DNA of 64,000 nt from an uncultured Phycisphaerales bacterium. GTDB taxonomy: Bacteria; Planctomycetota; Phycisphaerae; Tepidisphaerales; Tepidisphaeraceae. Shown piece by piece: positions 50,591 to 64,000 of this stretch (positions are counted from its first letter, which is position 1; every line of letters starts with the position of its first letter). The translations under genes and the position numbers were made by a program. The stretch spans positions 894,515-958,514 of the forward strand of contig CAWJPJ010000008.1 of assembly GCA_963844715.1 (NCBI GenBank). The letters run 5' to 3'. Under the pieces are notes generated by a model that saw nothing but the letters and a program-made list of their open reading frames with translations, ran no database searches and was not told where the DNA came from.

Positions 50591-51074
50591 ATATCGCCTT
50601 GGGATGCGATCATCGCGGATACGCCGCCAAGCGGGAACTATTGCCGCAATTGCGAACTCTCGGCTATCAAGTAGAGGACTTTGGTTGCCCTACCTCTTCC
50701 GGCGTCGATTACGCGGACATCGCCTATCCCTTGGCGTTGGCGGTTGCCGCGGGGCAATGTGAGCTTGGAATTCTGATCGGGTGCAACGGGATGGGCATGA
50801 ACATGGTCGCGAATAAAGTCCCGGGCGTGCGCACCGCGTCGGCAGACGATGAATTCGCTGCGCACGCGCCCGTGAAAAGTATCACTGCAATATCATCTGC
50901 TTTGGCGCGGATGTCGTCGGCGGGAATGAGATTCGAAAAATCGTGGAGGTGTTTTTGCAGGCAACGGTCTCCCCACGCCATGCACGACAAGTTACAAAAA
51001 TGAGGGAGATCGAGGAAATGGTGGCCAAAGTTTATGTCGCAAAGCACAATCAACCGTTCGTGTCGCTCGTTTGA
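50587..51074 (+). CDS. rpiB: RpiB/LacA/LacB family sugar-phosphate isomerase, frameshift at ~50865
   Basis: IALGCDHRG, VDY.D, GILIGCNGMGM..ANKVPGVR and NIICFG. Confidence 0.8.
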
Positions 51075-51081
51075 GACGACG

Positions 51082-51462
51082 ATGAAGACTCAAGGCGAAA
51101 TCGAAAGCGCGATTTCGGAAGGCATCGGGCGTTTTGAACAGGAATACATGGGCCGTGGCCCCAAGGACGTTCACGCGCACTTGATCGGCGATCTGCTTGT
51201 CGTCCGGCTCAAGGGTGTTTTGACAGCAGCCGAGCAGCACCTCGTCAAGACGCTACCAAGTGAAAAGGGCCGGGATCTTCTCAAGCAGGTGCGCAGCCAT
51301 TTGATCGAAATAGCGCGACCGCAGTTGGCGGCGATGATCGAGGGCATCGCGGGCGCCACGGTTGTGAGCCTGCACCATGACATCAGTACAGTGACCGGTG
51401 AAGAAGTAATTCTCTTCACCCTTTCAAGTTCGCCGCTTTGCCGCGAGGTGAAGAAGAGATAG
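51082..51462 (+). CDS. DUF2294 / MpsC family protein
   Basis: MKTQGEIESAIS...EYMGRGP...VLTAAE...SLHHDISTVTGE. Confidence 0.85.
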   Translation: MKTQGEIESAISEGIGRFEQEYMGRGPKDVHAHLIGDLLVVRLKGVLTAAEQHLVKTLPSEKGRDLLKQVRSHLIEIARPQLAAMIEGIAGATVVSLHHDISTVTGEEVILFTLSSSPLCREVKKR

Positions 51463-51570
51463 ACAATTCGATAAATCGACATTGTCCATTGCTATTAGCC
51501 GTTGGCACGCGTACCGTGTGACGTTGCGCAGGAAGTGTTCGTGCCTGTGCGTATTTGAAATATAAAGTCG

Positions 51571-51675
51571 TCGGACGACTAAATAGACGGCATCCCGGTC
51601 TCCGGGCGGCCGGTTGCAGAGTAAGCCGACGTGGTTCCGCACCGTAAGGGTGTTGAACCACGTCGGTTCTTTTTT
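51571..51675 (+). promoter_or_regulatory. Structured leader RNA/attenuator, copy 1
   Basis: TCGGACGACTAAATAGA-hairpin-GTTGCAGAGTAAGCCGACGT, then a 14-bp terminator stem and T tract, 28 nt before a DUF2294 gene. Confidence 0.75.
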
Positions 51676-51703
51676 GGCTTAAACGAAGTCGGAAACGTAC
51701 GTA

Positions 51704-52111
51704 ATGCCTAATTCCACGCAAACAATGGCTGAAGAGATTGGCCAGGTCGCAGCAGCGTTTCAGCAGCAAAGAACCGGCATCGAGCCCAAATCCGTGCATG
51801 TCGTGCTTAGAGGAGACACCTTGGTGGTGACACTGCAGGGCGCACTGTCGCTGGCCGAGCAGGCTTTAGCGCAGAGTGCCGAAGGCGCGGCGGAAGTACA
51901 AGAGCTTCATCGTCAGTTGTTTCTCACGGCGTTCGACAGGCTCCGAGCGGAAATCAGGCGGATCACGGGGTTAAACGTGTGTGAAGCGGCCGAAGTCGAA
52001 TCAGCGGCTGGGGCAGCAATTCAGGTTCTCGCCAGTGGAACGATGGTTCAAGTATTCCAACTTTCCGGAAAGTTGCCCCCCGGAGATTTCAGCTCTGGGG
52101 ACAAACTGTGA
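51704..52111 (+). CDS. Second DUF2294 / MpsC-like protein
   Basis: QQRTG.EPKSV.V...TLVVTL.GALS.AE..L pattern, colinear with 51082-51462. Confidence 0.75.
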   Translation: MPNSTQTMAEEIGQVAAAFQQQRTGIEPKSVHVVLRGDTLVVTLQGALSLAEQALAQSAEGAAEVQELHRQLFLTAFDRLRAEIRRITGLNVCEAAEVESAAGAAIQVLASGTMVQVFQLSGKLPPGDFSSGDKL

Positions 52112-52213
52112 AGCCACGGTCTCTGGAGTTGCGATAAAAGTGCCAGTGATTGTCAATTTTAGTTTTACGGACCCAAGGCAATTTCGCTTCTGGGCCGAAG
52201 ACTTTTTAAGGAA

Positions 52214-52842
52214 ATGGACATGTTAAGTAAGAACTCGGTTATCGCGTTATTCGATCAACACACTCAAGCCGAAAACGCAGTGAAGGAACTGCAGCAGGCG
52301 GGCTTCGACATGAAGTCGCTGTCTATCGTCGGAAAGGATTACCACACCGACGAGCACGTCGTCGGATATTACACGACCGCCGATCGCATGCAGTATTGGG
52401 GCAAAAATGGCGCATTCTGGGGCGGAATCTGGGGCCTGCTCTTTGGGTCAGCCCTCTTTGTCATCCCGGGTATCGGTCCGATTGTGGCAGCCGGGCCGGT
52501 GATCGCGTGGATCGTCGCCGCTCTCGAAGGTGCGGTCGTTGTTGGTGGCCTCAGCGCTCTTGCGCCGGGCTCTACAGCATCGGCATTCCGAAGAAAAGCA
52601 TTTTGCAATACGAAACTTCGCTGAAGGCAGGGAAGTTTATGCTGCTGGTGCATGGAACCCCTGAGGAAATGAGTCGAGCTTCGACGATCCTCAAAACCAC
52701 CGGGGCATCGGAATGCCAAGAGCACATGGCGGATGCACCGGTTGCCGCGCTGTTTGATCGACGTGATTCTCACCCATGCACATCCGGAAGCGATTCGGAG
52801 CACGATTGCCGGATCGCTTCCGCGACATTAGGAGCGTTATGA
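52214..52842 (+). CDS. General stress protein (YflT/17M-like, DUF1269-like), frameshift at ~52562
   Basis: AENAVKELQQAGFDMKSLSIVGKD, GAFWGGIWG and IPGIGP. Confidence 0.75.
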
Positions 52843-55348
52843 CCACATCAACGATGTCCAAACCTCCTGCGTCGACGGCACGCCCCCACGAACTGGCCCG
52901 GTTGCTTCAGCAATACGGATGCGGGCCAATTCATTTCACCGGCACGGATGGATTTTACGAGAGGCACCTCGTCTTCGACGCCGTGAAAGATTTGGCCACC
53001 ACCAGCCCGCGTGAACACTTCGAGGCAGTCGCCCGCTCGGTTCGCGATGTTCTCTCGCAACGCTGGGTGGCCACGGAGATGACCTATGAGCGCGAGAATC
53101 CAAAGCGCCTTTATTATCTCTCCCTGGAATTCCTGATAGGCCGTTCGCTTGGCAACAATATTGCAAACCTCCTTCTCGGCCCTCTGGCAAACCAGTTCGC
53201 GGCGTTGAAGAAGCTCGATTGGCTGGAACTGATCGAAAAGGAGCCAGATGCCGGATTGGGTAACGGCGGATTGGGTCGGCTGGCCGCCTGCTTTCTGGAT
53301 TCTTTAGCCACGATGCAGCTTCCGGCCATGGGTTACGGACTCCGTTATGAGTACGGCATTTTCAGACAATCCATCAAGAACGGATGGCAGCAGGAAAGCC
53401 CAGATAATTGGCTGCGTCGCCCGGACCCATGGGAAGTCGCCCGCCTGGATCAATATGTCACCGTGAACCTGAACTGTTCGTTCAAAATGACCGGAGGAAA
53501 CTTACACGCCATTCCGGGCACGCAATCCAATCTGATCGGTGTTCCCTATGACCGGCCGGTTGTCGGATACGACGGCAAGACCATCAATACGCTCCGCCTT
53601 TGGGCCGCGACAAGTTCGGAATATTTTGATTTCCAGAGATTCAGCGGCGGCGATTTCGTCGGCGCGTTGGCGGAGATGCTGTCGGCGGAATCGCTGACCC
53701 GCGTCCTTTATCCTGATGATTCGACCAGCCGTGGGAAGAGCCTGCGGTTTGTACAGGAGTATTTCCTCGTCGCCTGTTCGCTGGCCGATCTTGTCCGCCG
53801 CTTTCGCAAAAACAATTCCGATTGGACCCAGTTGCCCGAGCATGTCGCCATTCAGCTCAACGACACGCATCCATCGCTGTCCGTGCCTGAATTGATGCGA
53901 ATATTGCTCGATGATGCCCATTTGGGATGGGACGAAGCCTGGGACATTACGAAGCAGACGCTTGCCTATACGAACCACACCTTGTTGCCCGAAGCTTTGG
54001 AAAAATGGCCTGTCGAATGGTTCAAGAAGCTCCTGCCGCGCAACCTGGAAATCATTTTCGAGATTAACCGGCGACTGCTCGATGATGTGCGTGCAAAATT
54101 TCCAGGCGACGAGCGCCGCGTGGAACGCATAAGTCTTGTGGACGAGACGGACGGCCGCCATATCCGCATGGCTAACCTGGCCATCGTTGGCTCGCATAGC
54201 ACCAACGGCGTTTCTGCGATTCACTCCGGCTTGCTCCGAACCACAACCGTGAAGGATTTGGCCGACATGTTTCCGGAACGATTCAACAACAAGACCAACG
54301 GCGTGACCCCGCGTCGCTGGCTGCTGCTGTCGAACCCATCCCTGGCGCACGTGATCAGCGATGCGATCGGTGATGGCTGGATCACTGACCTCGATCAATT
54401 GCAGAAACTTAAGCCCCTGGCGAATGACAACGGCTTTGCTCATGCATTTCTAAAGGCCAAACGCGAGTCCAAAGCGCGGTTTTCTGATTGGCTCAAAGCT
54501 AGAACGGGGCAAGCCGTTGATCCCGATACCATTTTCGACTGCCAAATCAAACGCATCCATGAATACAAACGGCAATTGCTCAACGCGCTTCGCATCGTAG
54601 TGCTTTACAACCGGCTGCGCGCAATCCGGAACTCAATATGCCGTCAAGGACGTTTTTCTTCGCTGGCAAGGCAGCGCCGGCGTATCACCTGGCAAAGGTG
54701 ATAATCAAGTTCATCAATAACCTTGCGAGTGTCATTGATAGCGACCCGGCTATGCGAGGTAAGCTCAAAGTTGTTTTCCTGTCGGAGTATTCTGTCACGC
54801 TGGCCGAGCGACTGATTCCAGCGGGCGATGTCTCCAACCAGATTTCAACGGCGGGCTACGAGGCCAGCGGCACAAGCAATATGAAGTTCATGATGAATGG
54901 AGCTCTTACGCTGGGCACGCGCGATGGCGCCACCATCGAAATGGCTCAGGAGGCTGGCACGGACAATTTCTTTCTTTTTGGTCTGACGGCTCAAGAGGTG
55001 GCTGATAGCCGAAGCTGGTACAACCCATTTTGGCATTATGAAAATGAGCCGGAGACGCGTGCCGCGCTGGATCTGATCTTTTCCAACCATTTCAACCGTG
55101 ATGAACCTGGCATCTTCGAGGAACTGCGGAGCGCTCTTCTAACGGGCGGCGATCACTATATGCACCTGGCTGATCTGAAATCCTACCTGAGCGCCGACCA
55201 AGCACTGATCGAATTGTACGGCAAGCGGGATGCCTCGGCGCGGAAAGCAATATTGAACGTAGCCGCGTCTGGGAGATTCTCCAGCGACCGAACAATAACG
55301 CAATATGCTTCGGAAATCTGGAACCTGAAACCATGCCCAGTGGCATAA
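52839..55348 (+). CDS. glgP: Glycogen/alpha-glucan phosphorylase, frameshift at ~54620
   Basis: LGNGGLGRLAAC, QLNDTHP, TNHTL, KRIHEYKRQ and EASGTSNMK. Confidence 0.93.
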
Positions 55349-55360
55349 AGCAGACTCACA

Positions 55361-57016
55361 ATGATGATTTCTCCACTCGCGGGTAAACCGGCTCCCAAAG
55401 AACTGCTGGTGGATTTGGCGCTCCTTGAACGGGAGTATAACGATCGGAAGCCAGATTTAGCTGATTCCACCCAATGGGTCAGCTTCGGTACGAGCGGTCA
55501 TCGCGGCTCGTCACTGCGCGGAACGTTTAACGAAGCCCATATCCTGGCAATCACGCAGGCGATTTGCGATTACCGGCGAGGCCGGAATATCAGCGGCCCG
55601 CTTTACATGGGTAAGGACACGCATGCGCTATCTGCGCTAGCCCAGCGCACGGCCTTGGAAGTTCTGGCGGCAAACGATGTCGAGACCTTCATCCAGCCAG
55701 AGGATGGCGTAACGCCAGTTCCGGTCATTTCGCACGCAATTCTCGTTTACAATCGCAGCAGGAAACAACGTCTCGCCGACGGCATCGCGGTCACGCCTTC
55801 ACACAATCCGCCGGAAGACGGCGGGTTCAAATACAACTCAACAGATGGCGGTCCGGCCGATACCGACGTGACCGGCTGGATCCAGACTCGCGCCAACGAT
55901 TTGTTGCGCAGCAACAATGCCGGCGTGAAGCGCGTCACCTATGCTGCCGCCCTGAAGGCGGCGACGACGCATACCGAAGATTTCATTCTTCCCTATGTCA
56001 ACGACCTACGGAACGTCATCGACATGGAAGTGATCCGCGAGGCGGGTCTAAAATTGGGAGTCGATCCGTTGGGGGGATCGTCGCTGCCTTATTGGGAGCG
56101 CGTTGGTTCTATTTACAATCTCGATCTAACGGTCGTCAACAAGACAATTGACCCGCGGTTTGCGTTCATGACAGTGGACCACGACGGGCAAATCAGGATG
56201 GACTGTTCCAGCCCGTACGCGATGGCCAGACTCGTTGGGCTCAAAGATAAATACCGCGTCGCCTTCGCCAATGACCCCGACGCCGATCGCCATGGTATTG
56301 TTGCACCGTCCGTCGGTTTGATGAATCCCAACCATTATCTCGCCGTTGCGATTGGCTATTTGGCATCCCATCGCCCGCGCTGGCGGGGTAATGCGCTGGT
56401 GGGCAAGACTGTGGTCAGCAGCAGCATCATCGACCGGGTGGTGAGCAAGCTGAATCGACAGCTCTACGAAGTTCCCGTTGGCTTTAAATGGTTTTCGCCG
56501 GGACTTTTCGACGGGACTCTCTGTTTTGGCGGCGAGGAAAGTGCCGGTGCGAGTTTCCTGCGACTGGACGGCGCGGTTTGGACAACGGACAAGGACGGCC
56601 CCATCATGGATTTGCTTGCGGCTGAAATCACCGCGCGCACCGGCCGAGACCCGGGCGAGCATTTTCGTGATCTGACAGCCGAGTTTGGCACACCTTATTA
56701 CACGCGTATCGATGCACCCGCGTCGCCGCAGCAGAAGGCGAGTCTTGCCAAGCTGTCGGCCGAAGCGGTGAAAGAATCAAGTTTGGCGGGCGATCCTATC
56801 ACCGCAAAGTTGACGCGCGCTCCTGGCAACAACGCCTCAATCGGTGGTTTGAAAGTTTCGACCGCGAGCGGCTGGTTTGCGGCCCGTCCGTCCGGCACAG
56901 AAAACATCTACAAGATTTACGCCGAAAGCTTCCGCGACCAGAAGCATCTGAAATCCATTGTGGATGAAGCTCAGCAGATTGTAAGCGGCGCGATCGCCGG
57001 ACCGGCGAAGGGTTGA
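55361..57016 (+). CDS. pgm: Phosphoglucomutase, alpha-D-glucose-phosphate specific
   Basis: [27 protein letters not shown] and RPSGTE. Confidence 0.95.
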
Positions 57017-57028
57017 TCGGAGTTGCTG

Positions 57029-58733
57029 ATGCCGAACCAACACCGTCAAATTCCTGTCCTGCCTTTCCGCCCGCGCGTCCATCCCATTGCGGACAAAGTT
57101 TTCCGTTCCTATCCCGTGGGGCGGCAGAGTTTCTCCCGCGCTTGCCAGGGGAATGTTCTCTCGCTCAGGATTACCACAACAAAGCCTCTGGCGCAGAACG
57201 TACGTGCTATCCTGGCGACAACATTGAATTCGGCTGACGGTAGGTCATGGACAAAGGTGCCGTTCGAGCGCGAAAATGATCGCACCCTTTTATGCTGCAT
57301 CACGCCTAACCACCCCGGTTTGCATTCCTTCCGTGCCGAGTTCTCGCTAGACGGCGGCACCAGGTGGCTCGGCGATACCGTGCCAGACGCCTGGATTTTG
57401 ATCGATCCACCTCAGGTAGACGCGCTGTGCATTTATACCCTAATTCCCAATGTCTCCGGCACGCTCGCAAATTGGAAAGCTGACCTCAAGCGGATCGGCG
57501 ATATGGGCTTCAACGCAATCCATCTATTGCCCATAACCACGATGGACGATTCCGAAAGCCCCTATTCGGCGAAAGACCTCTTCAAAGTTGACCGCAGCTA
57601 CTTGAGCACAGGATCACGGGACGATGACCTCTCGCAGTTAGAAGACTTCGTCGCAGAAGCCAAGCGACTTGGGATTCGGCTTGTCTTTGATTTGGTTCTC
57701 AATCATGTAGGAGTCCATAGCACGATGGCGCTGCAGGCACCGGACTGGATTGTTCCCGATCAGAATGAGCCGGACGGACTGAAGCGCGAGATTTTGGTGC
57801 GATCAGGGGTGGCGCAACTGGAATGATTTGGTCTTGATCAATTATGAGCATCCATCGGAAGCGGTCCGCGCAGAAATATGGTCGTACATGACCGATTATG
57901 CCTTGTTCTGGGCGAAATACGCCAACGACACCGGAGGCTTTGTACGTTTTGACAACCTCCACAGCAGCGATCCCGCCTTTGTTGCTGCGCTCACCACGTC
58001 ATTGCATGCTGAATATCCAGAAGCTGGCATTCTTGCCGAGTATTTCACTGATGAAAGCACGCTGCTTCGGAATGGGCCAGAATGGGGATTGAATTTGAAT
58101 CTGGCCACGCCCTGGAATTTCAAATTCGTCCCTCAACTTCGCGACTATCTGAAATACATGCACCGGGTTTCGGAGCACATCCGATACTTCATGCCGATCA
58201 CCTCACACGACTGCGGCTCACCAGCACAAGAATTCGGCACCGCGGACTCGACGGTCCCTCGCTACGCAGTCGCGGCCCTGCTTGGCACTGGAGCCACCGG
58301 AGTTCCGCAGGGAGTGGAATTCGGCGAGAAAGAGCGGATCGACTTTATCGGCAGAAAGCCGAGAATGTCATATCCCGAAAGACCAAGGTTTGCCCAATTC
58401 ATCCGTCAGGTCAATGAGATTGTCGCGAAATATCCGGCATTCCGACGGGGTGAAAACTGCTGGTTTGTGGATAACGGCCATTCCGCAGTCATAGCGGCAT
58501 TTCGACGGGATTCAGACGCGCAGACATCAGGCTTTCTTGTCGTCTGCAATTTCGATACCGCTGGTCCGCAGCATATCACGATCGAACTTGGGCCCTTGTT
58601 GAAAAGAGACGGACCCTTCAAGTGCATCGAATTGTTGAGCGGCGACACTCGGATTGTGATGCATCCGCACATGGAGCTTGCACTTCCGGCATGTGGCGTC
58701 GAGGTGCTGAACTTTCCCGGAAAGGAAAATTGA
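57029..58733 (+). CDS. GH13 enzyme resembling the glucanotransferase domain of glycogen debranching enzyme, frameshift at ~57790
   Basis: GFNAIHLLP, SESPYS, DLVLNH, RFDNLHS, LAEYFT and TSHD. Confidence 0.78.
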
Positions 58734-58833
58734 AACCTAGAAATATTATTTTGCTGGTTCACGGTTGGGATCGCCTATACTATGACATGCAAGTTGGCTG
58801 ATCCCTCTGCTCCGTGCAGAACAGCGAAAATCT

Positions 58834-58938
58834 TCGGATGACTAAATAAAGAGTAATCTGGCCGAACCGCCAGAGGACTCGTTAACGAGTAAGCCGACGT
58901 AATTGAACACTCCCGTGTTCAGTTGTGTCGGCTTTTTT
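58834..58938 (+). promoter_or_regulatory. Structured leader RNA/attenuator, copy 2
   Basis: TCGGATGACTAAATAAA-hairpin-GTTAACGAGTAAGCCGACGT, then a 20-bp terminator stem and T tract, ~40 nt before the SPFH gene. Confidence 0.75.
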
Positions 58939-58977: not shown

Positions 58978-59909
58978 ATGAGAACTCCCAGTCCTTTCGC
59001 GGCACTGATCTTTGTCGTAATCCTCGCCATTGGGGGAGGTTTGGCGTTCGCCGCCTACAGCGCCGCAGCGCCGAAAAGAGCATATGTATCGGGATCATTG
59101 CATTTGTGATTGCTGTCGTCGCCGCTCGCTCAATCAGGGTCGCCGATCAGTGGGATAAAGCCGTGATTCTGCGGTTGGGCCAGTTCCACTCACTAAAAGG
59201 TCCGGGGCTTTTCTTCATAATACCTATTGTCGATGCGATTCCCTACTGGATCGATACCCGCGTAATCACAACCGGCTTCAAAGCTGAAAAGACGCTGACT
59301 AAGGACACCGTCCCGGTGGACGTCGACGCAGTGCTGTTTTGGAAAGTCATCGACCCCAAAAAGTCGGCGCTGGGCGTAGCGGATTATCGGAGCGCCATAA
59401 GCTGGGCATCGCAGACCGCGCTCCGCGATGTGATTGGAAAAACGATGCTTTCAGACATGCTGGAAGGCCGCGACAAAATCAGCGCGGTGCTGCAGAAGAT
59501 CATTGACGAACGCACCGAACCATGGGGCATCAATGTTATTTCTGTAGAGGTGAAGGACGTCTTGATTCCCCAAGCCCTTGAGAATGCCATGTCCATGCAG
59601 GCCCAGGCCGAACGAGAGCGCCAAGCCCGTGTGATTTTGGGAGATTCGGAACGGCAGGTAGCGGAGAAATTCGCTGAAGCGTCCAAGAGCTACCAGCATA
59701 ATCCGGTCGCATTTCATCTCCGGGCAATGAACATGCTTTACGAGGGGTTGAAGCAGAATTCCACCATCGTGATCGTTCCCAGCACTGCCGTCGAAAGCAT
59801 GCAGTTAGGCGGACTTGCTGGATTGACCGCCCTGACTATGGGAATCGGTCAGGACGGCGGTGGCAATGGAAAGCCGGTGCCACCCAATGAACCTGCATTG
59901 ATCCGATAG
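58978..59909 (+). CDS. SPFH/slipin (band 7) protein, frameshift at ~59070
   Basis: AVILRLG...GPGLFFIIP, LTKD.V.VDVDAV and AERERQAR; GGAG RBS. Confidence 0.88.
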
Positions 59910-59995: not shown

Positions 59996-60157
59996 ATGTC
60001 CATTCTATTCATCATAATTATCATCCTCGTGATCATGAGCTTCGGCGGTGGGTACTATAGGCCGGCTTATCGAACGCATGGGATTTCACTTGGAACGATC
60101 CTCTTAATCGTACTGGTCTTATGGCTTTTCGGCGTGTTTGGCAGCCGGCCGTTTTAG
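59996..60157 (+). CDS. Small 53-aa two-TM membrane protein (DUF3309-like), absent from the ORF track
   Basis: GAAAGGA RBS; MSILFIIIIILVIMSFGGGYYRPAYRTHGISLGTILLIVLVLWLFGVFGSRPF. Confidence 0.7.
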   Translation: MSILFIIIIILVIMSFGGGYYRPAYRTHGISLGTILLIVLVLWLFGVFGSRPF

Positions 60158-62676
60158 GTGTTGTTAGGCCCCCCACGGAATTCTTCTGTTGGAGCCGACA
60201 GGAAAGACAATGCCCAGCATGCACGCAAGGAGATACCGTCATTCACACGCTAAATAAAATTTCGCTCGATAAAATCGTGCCTCAGGAAAATGCCCCAGGC
60301 GCCCCCGGGATTCCGCCACGTTGGACTTGCAGCGCAAAAACGGGCGTGGGCACTGCCCTCAGCAACAAGAGCCTTGTCTGGTTCACGCTGAGCCATGGAA
60401 TTTTCAACGAAATATTTTATCCCCGTATCGATCAAGCGTGCGTCCGCGACATGGGATTGATAGTCACGGACGGAGCGGATTTCTTCTCCGAGGAAAAGAG
60501 CGACACCAAGTCTGAGGTTCATTGGCTGGCTGAGGGCGTCCCAGCATTCCGACTGGTCAATACGTGCCGCGCCGGCCGATACCGCATCGAAAAGCAAGTC
60601 GTGACTGATCCGCAGCGAAACACAGTTCTGCAACGCATCCAGTTCACCGCAATGCAAGACCATCTTTCCGATTATCGGTTGCATGTGCTGCTGGCGCCGC
60701 ATCTGGGAAACCACGGCGATGGCAACAATGCCTGGGTGGATGAGTTTGAAGGCTTGCCGCTTCTGTTTGCCCAGCGTGACGGATATGCGTTGGCACTGGC
60801 CTGTTCCGCGCCATTACTGAAGCGATCCGTCGGTTATGTCGGTTCTTCCGACGGCTGGCAGGATCTAATGGCGCACAAGCAGATGACCTGGGAATACACG
60901 CAGGCTCGGAACGGGAACGTGGCTTTGACTGCCGAAATCGATCTTCTTCACCCCAAGGGACATTGCGAACTGGCCTTGGGCTTTGGCAAGAACTCTCAAG
61001 AAGCGGCGGAGAACGCAATCGCCAGTCTTCGCGAAGGTTTTGACAACATCAAGCACGAATACATTGCCGGATGGCAGTTTTGGAAGAAGTCGGTGATGTC
61101 GACAAAAAAGGACCGTTTCCATGCGGGCGATCTTTTCCCGATCAGCCTCGCCGTCTTGCGAACCCATGAATCCAAGACGGCCTCGGGCGGTCTCATCGCC
61201 AGCCTCGCCATCCCATGGGGATCAAGCAAGGGGGACGGCGATCAGGGCGGTTATCACCTTGTCTGGGCACGCGACATGGTGGAAACGGCGGGCGCGTTGC
61301 TCGCTAGCGGCGCACATGATGACACGCGCCGGGCACTCACGTTTTTGCAGTCAACCCAGCAGCCGGACGGCCACTGGCCTCAAAATATGTGGGTGGATGG
61401 CACACCTTACTGGAACGGAATTCAACTCGATGAGACTGCGCTGCCTGTTTTGCTGGTGGACCTGGCCCACCGTGAGAAGGCGATATCTGACGCCGACATG
61501 CAATCGTTTTGGCCGATGGTGCAACGTGCCGCCGGCTATCTGGCGCGCAATGGCCCCGTGAGTCCGCAGGATCGCTGGGAGGAAGATCCGGGGTATTCGC
61601 CTTTTTCCGTCGCCGCGGAAATAGCCGCCATCCTCGTCGCTGCGGATATGGCCGCTTTGAACAATGAACCCGCCATGGCAACGTATCTCCGCGAAATCGC
61701 GGACGTTTGGCACACCTCCATCGATCGCTGGATGTACGCCTCGGCAACGGATTGGTGCAAAAAGTTCGATGTGGAAGGCTATTACCTGAGAATCGCCTCC
61801 GCGAACCCGGGCGAAGGGGAACGTTTCCAGAATTTTGTCCGCGTCAAGAATGTCACTGCCGCCGAAGACACCCGTATGGCCAAGCATCTGGTAAGTCCCG
61901 ACGCCCTGGCACTGGTGCGTTTTGGTTTGCGCACCGCGGATGACCCGCGCATTCTCGGCACGGTAAAAGTCATCGATTGTTTACTTAAAGTGGAGACGCC
62001 CACCGGTCCCAGTTGGCACCGATATAACGATGACGGGTATGGCGAACATAAAGACGGCGCGCCCTTTGACGGAACAGGCATCGGCCGCGCGTGGCCGCTA
62101 CTCACGGGTGAGCGTGCTCACTATGAACTCTTGGCAAATCGGGCTGAGTTTGCAAAGGGACTGTTGGACACGATGGAATCGTTTGCCAACGAAGGAAGCC
62201 TTATCTCAGAACAAATCTGGGACTCGCCCGACCTGCCGGAACATGATTTGTTTCTCGGCAAGCCCTCCGGTTCCGCCATGCCGTTGGTTTGGGCTCATGC
62301 AGAGTACATCAAGCTCCGGCGCTCCTTGCGGGACGGACACGTTTTCGACCTGCCACCGCAAACCGTACAACGTTATTTAATCGACAAAACTATATCCCCG
62401 CGCATGGTGTGGAGGTTCAACCACAAGCTCCGCTCCATGCCCGCGAGAAAATCACTCCGTGTCGAAACTCTGGCGCCCGTGGTGATTCATTGGAGTGTGG
62501 ATGACTGGAAAACGCATGAGGACACTAAGTCGCGCGATGTCGGCCTGGGCCTTCACGTTGCGGATCTAGCAACGCAATCACTCCCGGACGGAAAAGAAAT
62601 CAAATTCACTTTCTACTGGCCCGCCGCGGGTCACTGGGAAGGAACCGACTTTATCGTTCGCATCGACTCGCTATGA
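60121..62676 (+). CDS. GH15 glucoamylase / glucan 1,4-alpha-glucosidase (true start likely ~60240-60280)
   Basis: APGAPG..PRW, GYHLVWARD, QDRWEE, RYNDDGYG, WPLLTGER and PLVWAHAEY. Confidence 0.9.
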   Translation: MAFRRVWQPAVLGVVRPPTEFFCWSRQERQCPACTQGDTVIHTLNKISLDKIVPQENAPGAPGIPPRWTCSAKTGVGTALSNKSLVWFTLSHGIFNEIFYPRIDQACVRDMGLIVTDGADFFSEEKSDTKSEVHWLAEGVPAFRLVNTCRAGRYRIEKQVVTDPQRNTVLQRIQFTAMQDHLSDYRLHVLLAPHLGNHGDGNNAWVDEFEGLPLLFAQRDGYALALACSAPLLKRSVGYVGSSDGWQDLMAHKQMTWEYTQARNGNVALTAEIDLLHPKGHCELALGFGKNSQEAAENAIASLREGFDNIKHEYIAGWQFWKKSVMSTKKDRFHAGDLFPISLAVLRTHESKTASGGLIASLAIPWGSSKGDGDQGGYHLVWARDMVETAGALLASGAHDDTRRALTFLQSTQQPDGHWPQNMWVDGTPYWNGIQLDETALPVLLVDLAHREKAISDADMQSFWPMVQRAAGYLARNGPVSPQDRWEEDPGYSPFSVAAEIAAILVAADMAALNNEPAMATYLREIADVWHTSIDRWMYASATDWCKKFDVEGYYLRIASANPGEGERFQNFVRVKNVTAAEDTRMAKHLVSPDALALVRFGLRTADDPRILGTVKVIDCLLKVETPTGPSWHRYNDDGYGEHKDGAPFDGTGIGRAWPLLTGERAHYELLANRAEFAKGLLDTMESFANEGSLISEQIWDSPDLPEHDLFLGKPSGSAMPLVWAHAEYIKLRRSLRDGHVFDLPPQTVQRYLIDKTISPRMVWRFNHKLRSMPARKSLRVETLAPVVIHWSVDDWKTHEDTKSRDVGLGLHVADLATQSLPDGKEIKFTFYWPAAGHWEGTDFIVRIDSL

Positions 62677-62703: not shown

Positions 62704-64000
62704 GTGAAGCTCATGCTCTTGAAAACCGATACCAAGGCGAACGCCAACCGCTTTGTCTACCTTGCCACTGCCGTGGCGGCTCTAGGCGGTATGCTTTTCG
62801 GTTATGACGTCGGTGTCATTTCCGGAGCGATCCTTTTCGTCAAGAAAGATTTCTCCCTTTCTCCCGGCCTCGAAGAAGTTGTCATCAGCTCTGTCTTGTT
62901 CGGATCGTTAATCGGCGCGATTGCCGGAGGGGTGCTGGCCGACCGCTGGGGCCGCCGAAGACTGCTGATCATTACTGCGAGCGTCTTTGGGATCGGTGCC
63001 ATTGGAGCGGCTCTGTCGCCGGACACCGGGTGGCTGATCGTTGCCAGGATTCTTGCGGGCGCTGCCATCGGGGTCGCTTCTTTTGTCGCCCCGCTTTACA
63101 TATCAGAAATCGCGCCAGTGGCTATCCGCGGAAAGCTCGTTTCGATCAACCAAGTCGCGTTGACCAGCGGCATCGTCATCTCCTATCTGATCGATTACGC
63201 GTTTGCAGGTGTCGGGGCTTGGCGGTGGATGTTCGCGATGGCCGTCGTTCCGGCCGCAGCATTTGGAGTCGGATTGCTCTTCATTCCCGAGAGCCCCCGC
63301 TGGCTTGTCGGACGCGGACTGGCGGACAAGGCTTGCGCCGTACTCGCACGAATCCGCACACCTGATCAGGTCGAGGCGGAATTCGCCAGATTCAGCAGAG
63401 CACTCAGCAACAAAAAGAGAACTGGGCAGAATTGCTCAGTCCCGCCTTACGACCGGCAATGATTGTCGGTGTCGGGCTGGCCATCGCCCAACAAATCACC
63501 GGCATTAATACCGTCATTTATTATGCGCCGACGATTTTCAAGTTTGCCGGCTTGTCTTCCGCGTCGGTGGCCATTCTCGCCAGCGTCGGTGTCGGGGTCG
63601 TTAACGTCATCCTGACCGTCGTAGCAATGCAACTGATCGATCGAGTCGGCCGCCGTCCGCTTTTATTGATCAGCCTCGCCGGAATGTCGCTAAGTCTAAT
63701 CGTACTCGGACTGGCGTTTAAGCTTCCCCAATTGTCCGCCAGTCTAGGATGGATCGCAGTGACCAGCCTGATGCTGTACGTCGGTTCGTTCGCCGTCGGC
63801 CTGGGCCCAGTGTTTTGGCTAGTCCTTTCCGAGATTTATCCGCTCCGCATCCGGGGCCGGGCCATGAGCGTCGGCACGGTCGCTAATTGGATCGCCAATT
63901 TAATCGTTGCGCTGTCGTTTTTGACACTTACGCATCTGATGGGTAAAGCCGCTACGTTCTGGCTGTACGGAATCGTGAGTATTGGAGCGTGGCTCTTCGC
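62704..64000 (+). CDS. Sugar porter family MFS transporter, frameshift at ~63385, runs off the window
   Basis: LFGYDVG, DRWGRR, PLYISEIAP, PESPRWL, QQITGIN..IYYAP and DRVGRR. Confidence 0.92.

Follow-up and report, generated by a model that had tools for sequence, protein, structure and literature searches.

Several classes of bacterial leader RNA choose between termination of transcription and read-through. Terminator-coupled ON riboswitches such as the guanidine-I (ykkC), Na+ (DUF1646 motif) and Li+ (nhaA-I) classes are short rods or hairpins in the 5' leader, with conserved loops framed by covarying helices. The terminator takes its left arm from the 3' strand of the closing helix, so that transcription stops by default and continues only if this helix is stabilised. 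In the BglG/SacY/LicT ribonucleic antiterminator (RAT) and ANTAR systems, an antiterminator hairpin overlaps the terminator in several target leaders per genome, and a dedicated protein, encoded beside the targets, stabilises it. The c-di-GMP-I (GEMM-I) riboswitches occur in many copies per genome, with a mixed regulon and occasional tandem units. Gene regulation in the Planctomycetota is poorly understood. The only planctomycete-associated candidate RNA met in the literature searched is Rhodopirellula-1, a candidate cis-regulatory RNA with a supplementary alignment of the form AACAA..CGGAU..GAAC.. (Weinberg 2010, PMC2864571). Here, a leader RNA is described that occurs twice in 64,000 nucleotides (nt) of contig CAWJPJ010000008.1 of an uncultured Phycisphaerales bacterium. 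This whole stretch is called the window, and positions are given in its numbering. The leader RNA is an undescribed RNA family that uses a known type of mechanism, the terminator/antiterminator leader. It is linked, physically and genome by genome, to genes for DUF2294/MpsC proteins (PF10057).

An earlier note on this DNA, made from the sequence alone, had described two leaders with a common layout and with middle hairpins that agree in shape and not in sequence. Both leaders were found on the forward strand (Table 1). Each consists of a long imperfect hairpin, called the rod here, followed by a terminator and a T tract. The two copies have the same 5' side, UCGGAYGACUAAAUARA, and the same 3' side, GUUnnnGAGUAAGCCGACGU. 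Between these strands, the middle hairpin is CGGC-AU-CCCGG/CCGGG-CG-GCCG in copy 1 and GAGU-AA-UCUGGC/GCCAGA-GG-ACUC in copy 2. Of the four P3 pairs, three have changed on both sides from one copy to the other without loss of pairing, and so have two of the five P4 pairs. Exact matches to the 13-mer GAGTAAGCCGACG and the 9-mer GACTAAATA in the window are confined to the two leaders, and the combined leader motif has only these two matches in the genome of 4.55 million base pairs (Mb). When cut ahead of the terminator, the isolated rods adopt the proposed fold at -30.2 (copy 1) and -25.0 kcal/mol (copy 2). Only one of 200 shuffled sequences was as stable for copy 1 and none of 200 for copy 2. 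The full-length leaders are predicted to fold into P3/P4 plus the long terminator, with z-scores of -6.3 and -6.9, respectively.

The earlier note did not recognise the RNA as a known family, and this holds for the catalogue searched. No Rfam 15 model reached its gathering score anywhere in the window. The highest score of copy 1 in permissive Rfam scans was 17.1 bits, for ar7, a family with a cut-off of 60 that aligned only with the terminator; copy 2 had no match. A description of the RNA was not found in the full-text literature, a search that lay outside the supplements of the 2017 and 2024 RNA-discovery papers. A term search gave no match in the main text of one of these (Weinberg 2017, PMC5737381), and a passage of the other concerns an unrelated Streptococcus motif (Narunsky 2024, PMC11109978). 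Rhodopirellula-1 was considered as the identity of the leader RNA and was rejected, as it has another consensus and another shape in the supplementary alignment (PMC2864571). A riboswitch-like element specific to Planctomycetota was not found in Rfam 15 or in the literature searched.

A covariance model (R1) was built from the two window copies alone. With this model, 16 of 61 related genomes had a best match at E < 1e-8. Each of the 16 had between 1 and 15 matches, which often lay only a few kilobases (kb) apart. Many full-length matches in other genomes had E of about 1e-24 or better, and a chance origin of the element is therefore excluded. Two more of the 61 genomes had weak matches only. 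One of these (G016, L021) was set aside as a tandem GACTCGTCGGAC repeat and the other (G027, 23 bits) as doubtful. Strong matches were present in 11 of 36 genomes of the window's own family. When the phylum was sampled evenly and 33 candidates were scored per genome, a match at E <= 1e-6 was present in at least 5 of 151 genomes, that of the window among them. The exact motif was also looked for in about 185,000 prokaryote species, each represented by one genome, and at least 136 stretches matched. The lineages among the matches listed are Pirellulales, Planctomycetaceae, Gemmataceae, Isosphaeraceae, Thermoguttaceae, Phycisphaerae, Tepidisphaeraceae, and Candidatus Kuenenia. The sole label from outside the phylum among the matches listed belongs to CAVYRM010000002.1 (L091-L093), which has at least three copies of the RNA and is titled 'uncultured delta proteobacterium'; this could be a mislabelled bin or a transfer. 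In the scans made, the family is confined to Planctomycetota, and its distribution there is patchy. A non-redundant forward set of 126 copies was used for the counts that follow. One genome (G004) supplies two of these copies and is also among the 61 genomes.

The overlap between rod and terminator recurs throughout the family. In every copy of an independent alignment (A6, described below), the left arm of the terminator starts at (G)CCGACG, which is the 3' strand of P1 plus two bases. The claim that one CCGA serves both folds, which then exclude each other, can thus be extended from the two window copies to every aligned copy. Where the shared strand has changed, the right arm of the terminator has changed with it, as CCGU/ACGG (L111:2281) or CCGG/CCGG (L110:5931 and L019), and P1 absorbs these changes as U-U or U-G. 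A run of at least four T was present within 80 nt in 121 of 126 copies, which have the GC-rich hairpin and U tract of an intrinsic terminator; for two of the other five, the sequence of the locus breaks off too early. For copy 1, the terminator state was calculated at -58.0 kcal/mol and the state with P1 and P2 enforced at -48.8 kcal/mol. The values for copy 2 were -47.5 and -37.8 kcal/mol. Since the terminator state is 9-10 kcal/mol more stable, termination is likely to be the default. In the enforced state of both window copies, the leftover hairpin stops 12-15 nt short of the U tract, and a rod that is held closed would thus permit read-through. By computation, the expression platform excludes the closing helix of the rod, as it does in riboswitches. 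The terminator is also conserved in sequence and length across classes, as GACGUGG-UYGAAYACC-loop-GGUGUUC-CCACGUC (A6 columns 239-303). Such conservation at the sequence level, which includes 51624-51668 and 58891-58934 in the window, is unusual for an expression platform.

Covariation was examined in two alignments. In A4, which holds 107 model-aligned matches, is fitted to the model and comes from a scan that had fixed the P1 and P2 words, standard pairs fill 96.9% of cells and double-sided changes occur at 10 of 18 pairs. None of 500 shuffles reached that level, and slid registers likewise fell far short of the observed pairing. Because of the way in which A4 was made, 119 whole elements (-62 to +50, with G004 left out) were aligned independently with MAFFT as A6. 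RNAalifold on A6 gave P2, P2b, P3, P4 and the terminator, a total of 31 pairs with at least one compensatory change at 25. Among the terminator pairs, 14 of 16 covary. P1 is missing from the minimum-energy consensus, in which the terminator takes up the 3' strand of P1, just as a switch requires. The P2 pairs are nearly constant, with A-U in 117, C-G in 117 and U-A in 115 of the 119 elements. Only two compensatory events were seen in P2, a G-C (L015:229) and an A-U (L111:2281), along with several U-G wobbles. The internal-loop nucleotides of the rod are invariant and purine-rich, and the apical loop varies from 3 to 9 nt. The earlier note had paired the 5' TCGG and ACT with the 3' CCGA and AGT around two conserved loops. 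The complementarity and the loops are conserved across the family, and covariation of these strands is close to nil. The strands are near-invariant, and the case for P1/P2 pairing is therefore made from conserved complementarity and not from covariation. The P1/P2 nucleotides seem, from their conservation, to be constrained as sequence, as would be expected of a recognition surface.

The position of the RNA relative to genes was also explored. Same-strand open reading frames (ORFs) of at least 60 amino acids that start no more than 700 nt after a copy were collected, which gave 301 references, of which 298 were scanned against Pfam after duplicates were dropped. The ORF calls are crude, as the longest ORF was taken and Pfam alone served for confirmation. 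A same-strand gene with a Pfam match lies behind 84 of 126 copies, with a median start 105 nt after the rod. In the reverse-strand control, in which the longest ORF per copy was used, only 5 of 116 had a Pfam match. The only strong match on the reverse strand, PF10712 (NAD-GH) at L084:3067-4239 (-), is antisense to an Hsp70 gene, and PF10712 is a known artefact family. In one locus (L101), two complete rod-terminator units stand in tandem ahead of one gene. A conserved, structured domain in the 5' leader of regulated genes, as in riboswitches, is what these data describe. The earlier note had made its switch depend on homologues that covary and that sit in 5' leaders. Both were found, with covariation of P3, P4 and the terminator.

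Promoter-like sites are a further part of the leader. The pattern TTGNNN-N16-18-TANNNT was present upstream of 79 of 125 copies and in 1 of 119 control stretches. The end of the -10 element is mostly 50-54 nt ahead of UCGG, and the mode for the family is 52 nt. Transcripts are predicted to start about 45 nt ahead of UCGG. The site of leader 2 has a 19-nt spacer and falls outside the 16-18 nt pattern. Hairpins of the GGAGC..GCUCC type occur 5' of the rod in many copies; the excess over the whole family is modest, at -9.9 kcal/mol against -7.8 kcal/mol for shuffles. RNA data were available as assembled contigs of three runs, and these contigs show neither transcript ends nor levels. One contig of 212 nt, assembled from a wood-decay metatranscriptome, matches 51677-51888 without a difference and starts just past the T tract of leader 1. 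This identity indicates that the organism or a near-identical strain is present in the wood-decay RNA library. Another contig, from a run of unrecorded type, covers 51529-51679.

The genes behind the RNA can indicate what it is used for. The first recognised genes of the 84 copies fall into 43 different families. DUF2294/MpsC is the commonest, with 19, and is followed by CsrA-like (5), ice-binding-like (5), Transgly_assoc (4), Hsp20 (3), BON (3), and YflT (3). CsbD, DUF1328, DUF3309, PRC-barrel, phosphoketolase, and fatty-acid desaturase were each seen twice. Singletons include Hsp70, an extracytoplasmic function (ECF) sigma factor, DUF883, class-I aldolase, P-type ATPase, ArsD, and SPFH. Dps/ferritin was found once, as the second gene after CsbD. 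In Bacillus, CsbD and YflT are general stress proteins under sigma-B; in Escherichia coli, OsmY (BON), Dps, ElaB (DUF883), and YmgE (Transgly_assoc) are members of the RpoS regulon. From these memberships, the regulated set can be read as a general stress, dormancy or desiccation regulon, and the genes look like a general-stress-type set. Secreted ice-binding-like proteins (PF11999), some with PEP-CTERM or Calx-beta, lie behind 6 of 126 copies (loci L036, L079, L094, L101, and L111), and fatty-acid desaturases lie behind 3 of 126. Together, these are a hint of stress from cold or freezing among planctomycetes of soil and peat.

The DUF2294 proteins deserve separate attention. They fall cleanly into two types, and type 2 is about 25% identical to type 1. 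In the window, the order is type 1, 107 nt, leader 1, 70 nt, and type 2, and both flanking proteins exceed the curated cut-off of 23 bits for PF10057. The type 1 protein has 126 residues and is 62-82% identical to the products of 26 type-1 genes from planctomycete lineages across the phylum. The two types differ in their relation to the RNA. It was found upstream on the same strand for 15 of 18 type-2 genes (one of the 18 from G004) and for none of 31 distinct type-1 genes. In two of the three exceptional type-2 genes (L048 and L111), the ORF with the longest start overruns the RNA. The 31 type-1 genes are nevertheless close to it: within 700 nt, 26 are divergent from an RNA-led unit, 10 have the RNA next on the same strand, and 28 have one or both of these arrangements. 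A conserved core locus is apparent in four genomes of the window's family (L006, L008, L007, and L009, from G030, G002, G036, and G019). There, a 'type B' RNA (GGGUAA.../...CGCAA) is divergent from the type-1 gene, and a 'type A' RNA (GGCA.../GUUGCAGAG/...CGUGG) comes after it. The window has kept the type A copy at the core locus (51034-52111), and its type B copy lies 7 kb downstream.

The RNA and the protein also occur together. When the two result tables for the 61 genomes were compared by hand, 14 genomes had both, 2 had the RNA only (G012 and G057), 2 had the protein only (G044 and G046), and 43 had neither. As the 61 genomes are related to one another, these counts do not amount to a statistical test. 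The distribution is patchy over at least 14 genera and matches genome by genome.

Taken together, the best explanation of the data as a whole is a terminate-by-default attenuator with a rod that is held by type-1 DUF2294, and the probability of this reading is put at roughly 0.4. In this model, a sigma-70-like promoter about 50 nt upstream would launch the transcript. The nascent transcript would first fold the rod, with P1, P2, P2b, P3, and P4 between invariant purine-rich loops. As the polymerase advances, the stronger terminator hairpin would capture the CCGA(CG) strand of P1, and transcription would stop at the U tract. If the rod is kept closed, the leftover hairpin would end before the U tract and the polymerase would read into the operon. 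Because closing of the rod permits read-through, the element would be an ON switch. The likeliest factor to close the rod would be the type 1 DUF2294/MpsC protein encoded directly upstream (51082-51462), perhaps in answer to a stress signal, and its type 2 paralogue, under control of the leader, would provide feedback. Type 1 is ranked first as effector because an unregulated, conserved gene adjoins the targets and a paralogue is under control, which is the layout of a regulator with feedback; as an identification, it is tentative. One type of switch would then stand ahead of a general-stress gene set across Planctomycetota. A broader version is speculative and rather unlikely. In it, type-1 DUF2294 would be a signal-sensing RNA-binding antiterminator and, with type-2 feedback, the master switch for general stress in planctomycetes, through a response that acts after transcription initiation and uses no alternative sigma factor. 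The earlier note had proposed that a ligand- or protein-stabilised antiterminator controls both window operons. Leader position, covariation and terminator overlap agree with this proposal; the near-invariant P1/P2 does not add to it.

Several observations weigh against the attenuator held by DUF2294. P1 and P2 barely covary, and mismatches occur in divergent, low-scoring copies (L017, L060:4838, L036:5244, and L074:5545) as well as in 7 cells among 22 further model-found copies. The promoter hexamers in the window are weak and neither was called by a consensus scan. The RNA contigs cannot show termination or read-through. Two of the 16 RNA-positive genomes, which are 95% and 99% complete, have no DUF2294. 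In favour of the link, all copies in these two genomes score lower (62.6, 39.2, and 43.7 bits), and two or more of them are deviant, L017 with a C-C mismatch in P2 and L019 without a U tract. Conversely, two genomes have a type-1-like DUF2294 gene and no RNA within 2 kb of it. A search for diverged RNA near the DUF2294 genes of RNA-negative genomes gave nothing above 9 bits. One look-alike of 8.7 bits, with UCGG..GAC..CCGACG, was noted at L168:3240-3311 (+) in G044, about 880 nt from the lone type-1-like gene. It is possibly a diverged relic and more likely due to chance.

The protein itself adds to these points. By residue count, type 1 is not basic overall, and the Pfam family name points to a membrane-potential system and not to RNA. 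RNA binding by DUF2294 is a proposal that finds no direct support in this analysis. The structure model of type 1 (mean predicted local distance difference test score, pLDDT, 90.5) consists of a helix, two strands, two helices, and two strands. It had no Foldseek match in the PDB at E <= 0.001, and the best Z in a wide VIA-align search was 6.5, below the noise level of 7-8. The rows for TRAPP/Bet3, V4R, a PoxR sensor, H-NOX, YslB, and RbfA were considered as kin of the fold and rejected, as they lie below noise and are a hint only. A PDB sequence search with type 1 gave a chance match only, and the ESM Atlas search gave nothing. A prediction of a complex of type 1 and type 2 scored 0.19 and 0.14 against a mark of 0.32, which gives no answer either way.

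The rod could instead be the aptamer of a true riboswitch, and this reading is nearly as probable as the one with the protein. A small molecule or ion that is raised by stress (an alarmone, second messenger, monovalent ion or osmolyte) would bind the rod, P1/P2 would close, and termination would not occur. DUF2294 would merely be the commonest regulated gene, perhaps one that handles the same ligand. Invariant internal-loop nucleotides framed by covarying helices, as in small terminator-coupled riboswitches, fit this reading, and so does a P1 that is common to rod and terminator. The presence of up to 15 copies per genome, the tandem pair and the conservation over several planctomycete classes fit as well. 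The two genomes that have the RNA and lack DUF2294 are readily explained. The commonest downstream gene encodes a protein of unknown function, which is true of many orphan riboswitches. However, the genes of the regulon are very diverse, no particular ligand can be proposed, and the tight physical and phyletic tie to an unregulated, conserved type-1 DUF2294 gene needs a separate account. In riboswitch expression platforms, the sequence of the terminator is mostly not conserved, and the unusual conservation described above therefore counts against a riboswitch.

Control by CsrA appears improbable. CsrA, or a CsrA-like paralogue linked to the RNA, would bind the GGA in UCGGAUGACU and shift the balance between rod and terminator, for example with the GGA in an alternative 5' hairpin, AGUC-loop-GACU. 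The invariant 5' strand includes the GGA, with UCGGA present in 118 of 125 copies, and the alternative hairpin of 5' flank and GACU forms at least three of its four pairs in 84 of 125 copies. CsrA-like genes lie behind 9 of 126 copies, and low-scoring CsrA paralogues were found within the RNA clusters of four genomes. The window operon encodes glycogen metabolism, which is a classic CsrA target in E. coli. However, CsrA (PF02599) was found in 60 of 61 genomes, with or without the RNA, and its presence therefore does not discriminate. The window genome has only two canonical CsrA genes, both on other contigs. Leaders bound by CsrA have at least two GGA motifs that are looped or single-stranded and that mostly overlap the ribosome-binding site. 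Here there is only one invariant GGA, it is not cleanly looped in the two window copies, and no GGA overlaps a ribosome-binding site. A second GGA-like sequence, GGGAGG, lies inside the paired P4/P3 and is absent from window copy 1.

A kinetic or temperature sensor that needs no factor is similarly improbable. Temperature, elongation speed or ions would decide between rod and terminator, and cold or osmotic stress alone would give read-through. The advantage of the terminator is only about 9-10 kcal/mol, so kinetics could decide, and the ice-binding-like (6), desaturase (3), Hsp20 and Hsp70 genes suit such a sensor. The invariance of the unpaired loops across the phylum points instead to specific recognition and not to bulk thermodynamics, and the DUF2294 linkage would be unaccounted for. 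Finally, an independent small RNA gene (promoter, 5' hairpin, rod and terminator) that acts in trans or as a protein sponge, with only incidental placement before genes, would account for a discrete default product of about 150 nt from its own promoter-like site and strong terminator and for the 42 of 126 copies without a Pfam-recognised same-strand ORF within 700 nt, but it is likewise improbable given the short-range same-strand gene bias, the conserved overlap of P1 and terminator, the tandem units before one gene, and the unannotated ORFs or truncated loci of many of those 42 copies (7 with less than 400 nt downstream).

Table 1. Positions of the leader elements and of the adjoining genes in the window.
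Feature	Position	Strand	Remarks
Leader copy 1	51571-51675	+	rod, terminator and T tract
Copy 1 antiterminator rod	51571-51629	+	P1 UCGG/CCGA, P2 ACU/AGU, P2b UA/UG, P3, P4, conserved internal loops; R1 90.2 bits
Copy 1 P1 and P2 strands	UCGG 51571-74, ACU 51578-80, AGU 51620-22, CCGA 51626-29	+	proposed pairing
Copy 1 P3	CGGC 51588-91 / GCCG 51609-12	+	
Copy 1 P4	CCCGG 51594-98 / CCGGG 51602-06	+	
Copy 1 intrinsic terminator	51624-51675	+	stem 51624-51668; T tract 51670-75; left arm includes P1 3' strand
Leader copy 2	58834-58938	+	rod, terminator and T tract
Copy 2 antiterminator rod	58834-58897	+	R1 98.5 bits
Copy 2 P1 and P2 strands	UCGG 58834-37, ACU 58841-43, AGU 58888-90, CCGA 58894-97	+	proposed pairing
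Copy 2 P3	GAGU 58851-54 / ACUC 58877-80	+	
Copy 2 P4	UCUGGC 58857-62 / GCCAGA 58869-74	+	
Copy 2 intrinsic terminator	58891-58938	+	stem 58891-58934, 20 base pairs (terminator scan), then T tract to 58938
Promoter-like site, leader 1	51489-51517	+	TTGCTA-17 nt-TACCGT; -10 end 53 nt before UCGG
Promoter-like site, leader 2	58751-58781	+	TTGCTG-19 nt-TATACT; -10 end 52 nt before UCGG; read by eye
5' hairpin P0, copy 1	51526-51550	+	stem of 7 base pairs, -11.0 kcal/mol; between presumed start and rod
DUF2294/MpsC type 1	51034-51462	+	likely start ATG 51082; PF10057, E 1.3e-37, 128.7 bits; candidate trans-acting partner
Operon 1 first gene, DUF2294/MpsC type 2	51704-52111	+	PF10057, E 1.9e-16, 60.5 bits
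Operon 1, YflT-domain protein	52214-52624	+	
Operon 1, glycogen phosphorylase	52776-54701 and 54638-55348	+	two frames
Operon 1, phosphoglucomutase	55361-57016	+	
Operon 1, GH13-like/debranching-type protein	57023-57826 and 57828-58733	+	two ORFs
Operon 2, SPFH/Band-7 protein	58978-59909	+	ATG at 58978
Operon 2, GH15 glucodextranase-like protein	60121-62676	+	
Operon 2, MFS sugar porter	62704-63462 and 63432-64000	+	two frames; second runs to window end

The two operons behind the window leaders (Table 1) fit the mobilisation of a glucan reserve. The genes for glycogen phosphorylase, the GH13-like protein and the MFS sugar porter are each split between frames. The assembly has 8 contigs and is 85% complete, and indels from sequencing, and not true pseudogenes, may account for the split genes. 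No Pfam match was obtained for the second GH13-like ORF.

The leader RNA marks a whole regulon, with up to 15 operons per genome. In planctomycetes of soil and peat, this regulon combines genes of desiccation, cold, osmotic and starvation type with the mobilisation of carbon reserves. Direct binding of a ligand would make the RNA a new riboswitch class, and the nature of that ligand would disclose which stress signal the phylum uses. If DUF2294 operates the RNA, this would be the first molecular function for a widespread domain of unknown function (DUF) and a new family of antiterminator proteins.

In comparison with known systems, the leader RNA resembles Rhodopirellula-1 in being a candidate cis-regulatory RNA of Planctomycetes and differs from it in consensus and shape. 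It resembles the c-di-GMP-I (GEMM-I) riboswitches in copy number, mixed regulon and occasional tandem units, but its architecture is unrelated, it has no Rfam match, and the gene lists did not connect it with cyclic-nucleotide enzymes. The BglG/SacY/LicT RAT and ANTAR systems are alike in the overlap of antiterminator and terminator, in the several target leaders per genome and, if type-1 DUF2294 is the stabilising protein, in the placement of its gene beside the targets. No CAT/PRD or ANTAR domains were found by Pfam among the 13 window proteins and 298 downstream ORFs. The leader RNA is a single long rod, with neither the RAT palindrome nor the two hexaloop hairpins (judged by their consensus features and not by a dedicated model), and the candidate protein, DUF2294, has no known RNA-binding activity, unlike the dedicated proteins of those systems. 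The closest likeness in layout is to the guanidine-I, Na+ and Li+ riboswitches, with which the RNA shares its place in the 5' leader, the conserved loops in covarying helices and the terminator arm drawn from the closing helix, together with the default termination and read-through on holding that are proposed here. It differs from them in that it matches no Rfam 15 model, theirs included, in that the sequence of its terminator is conserved, and in that it is tied to an adjacent, unregulated protein gene.

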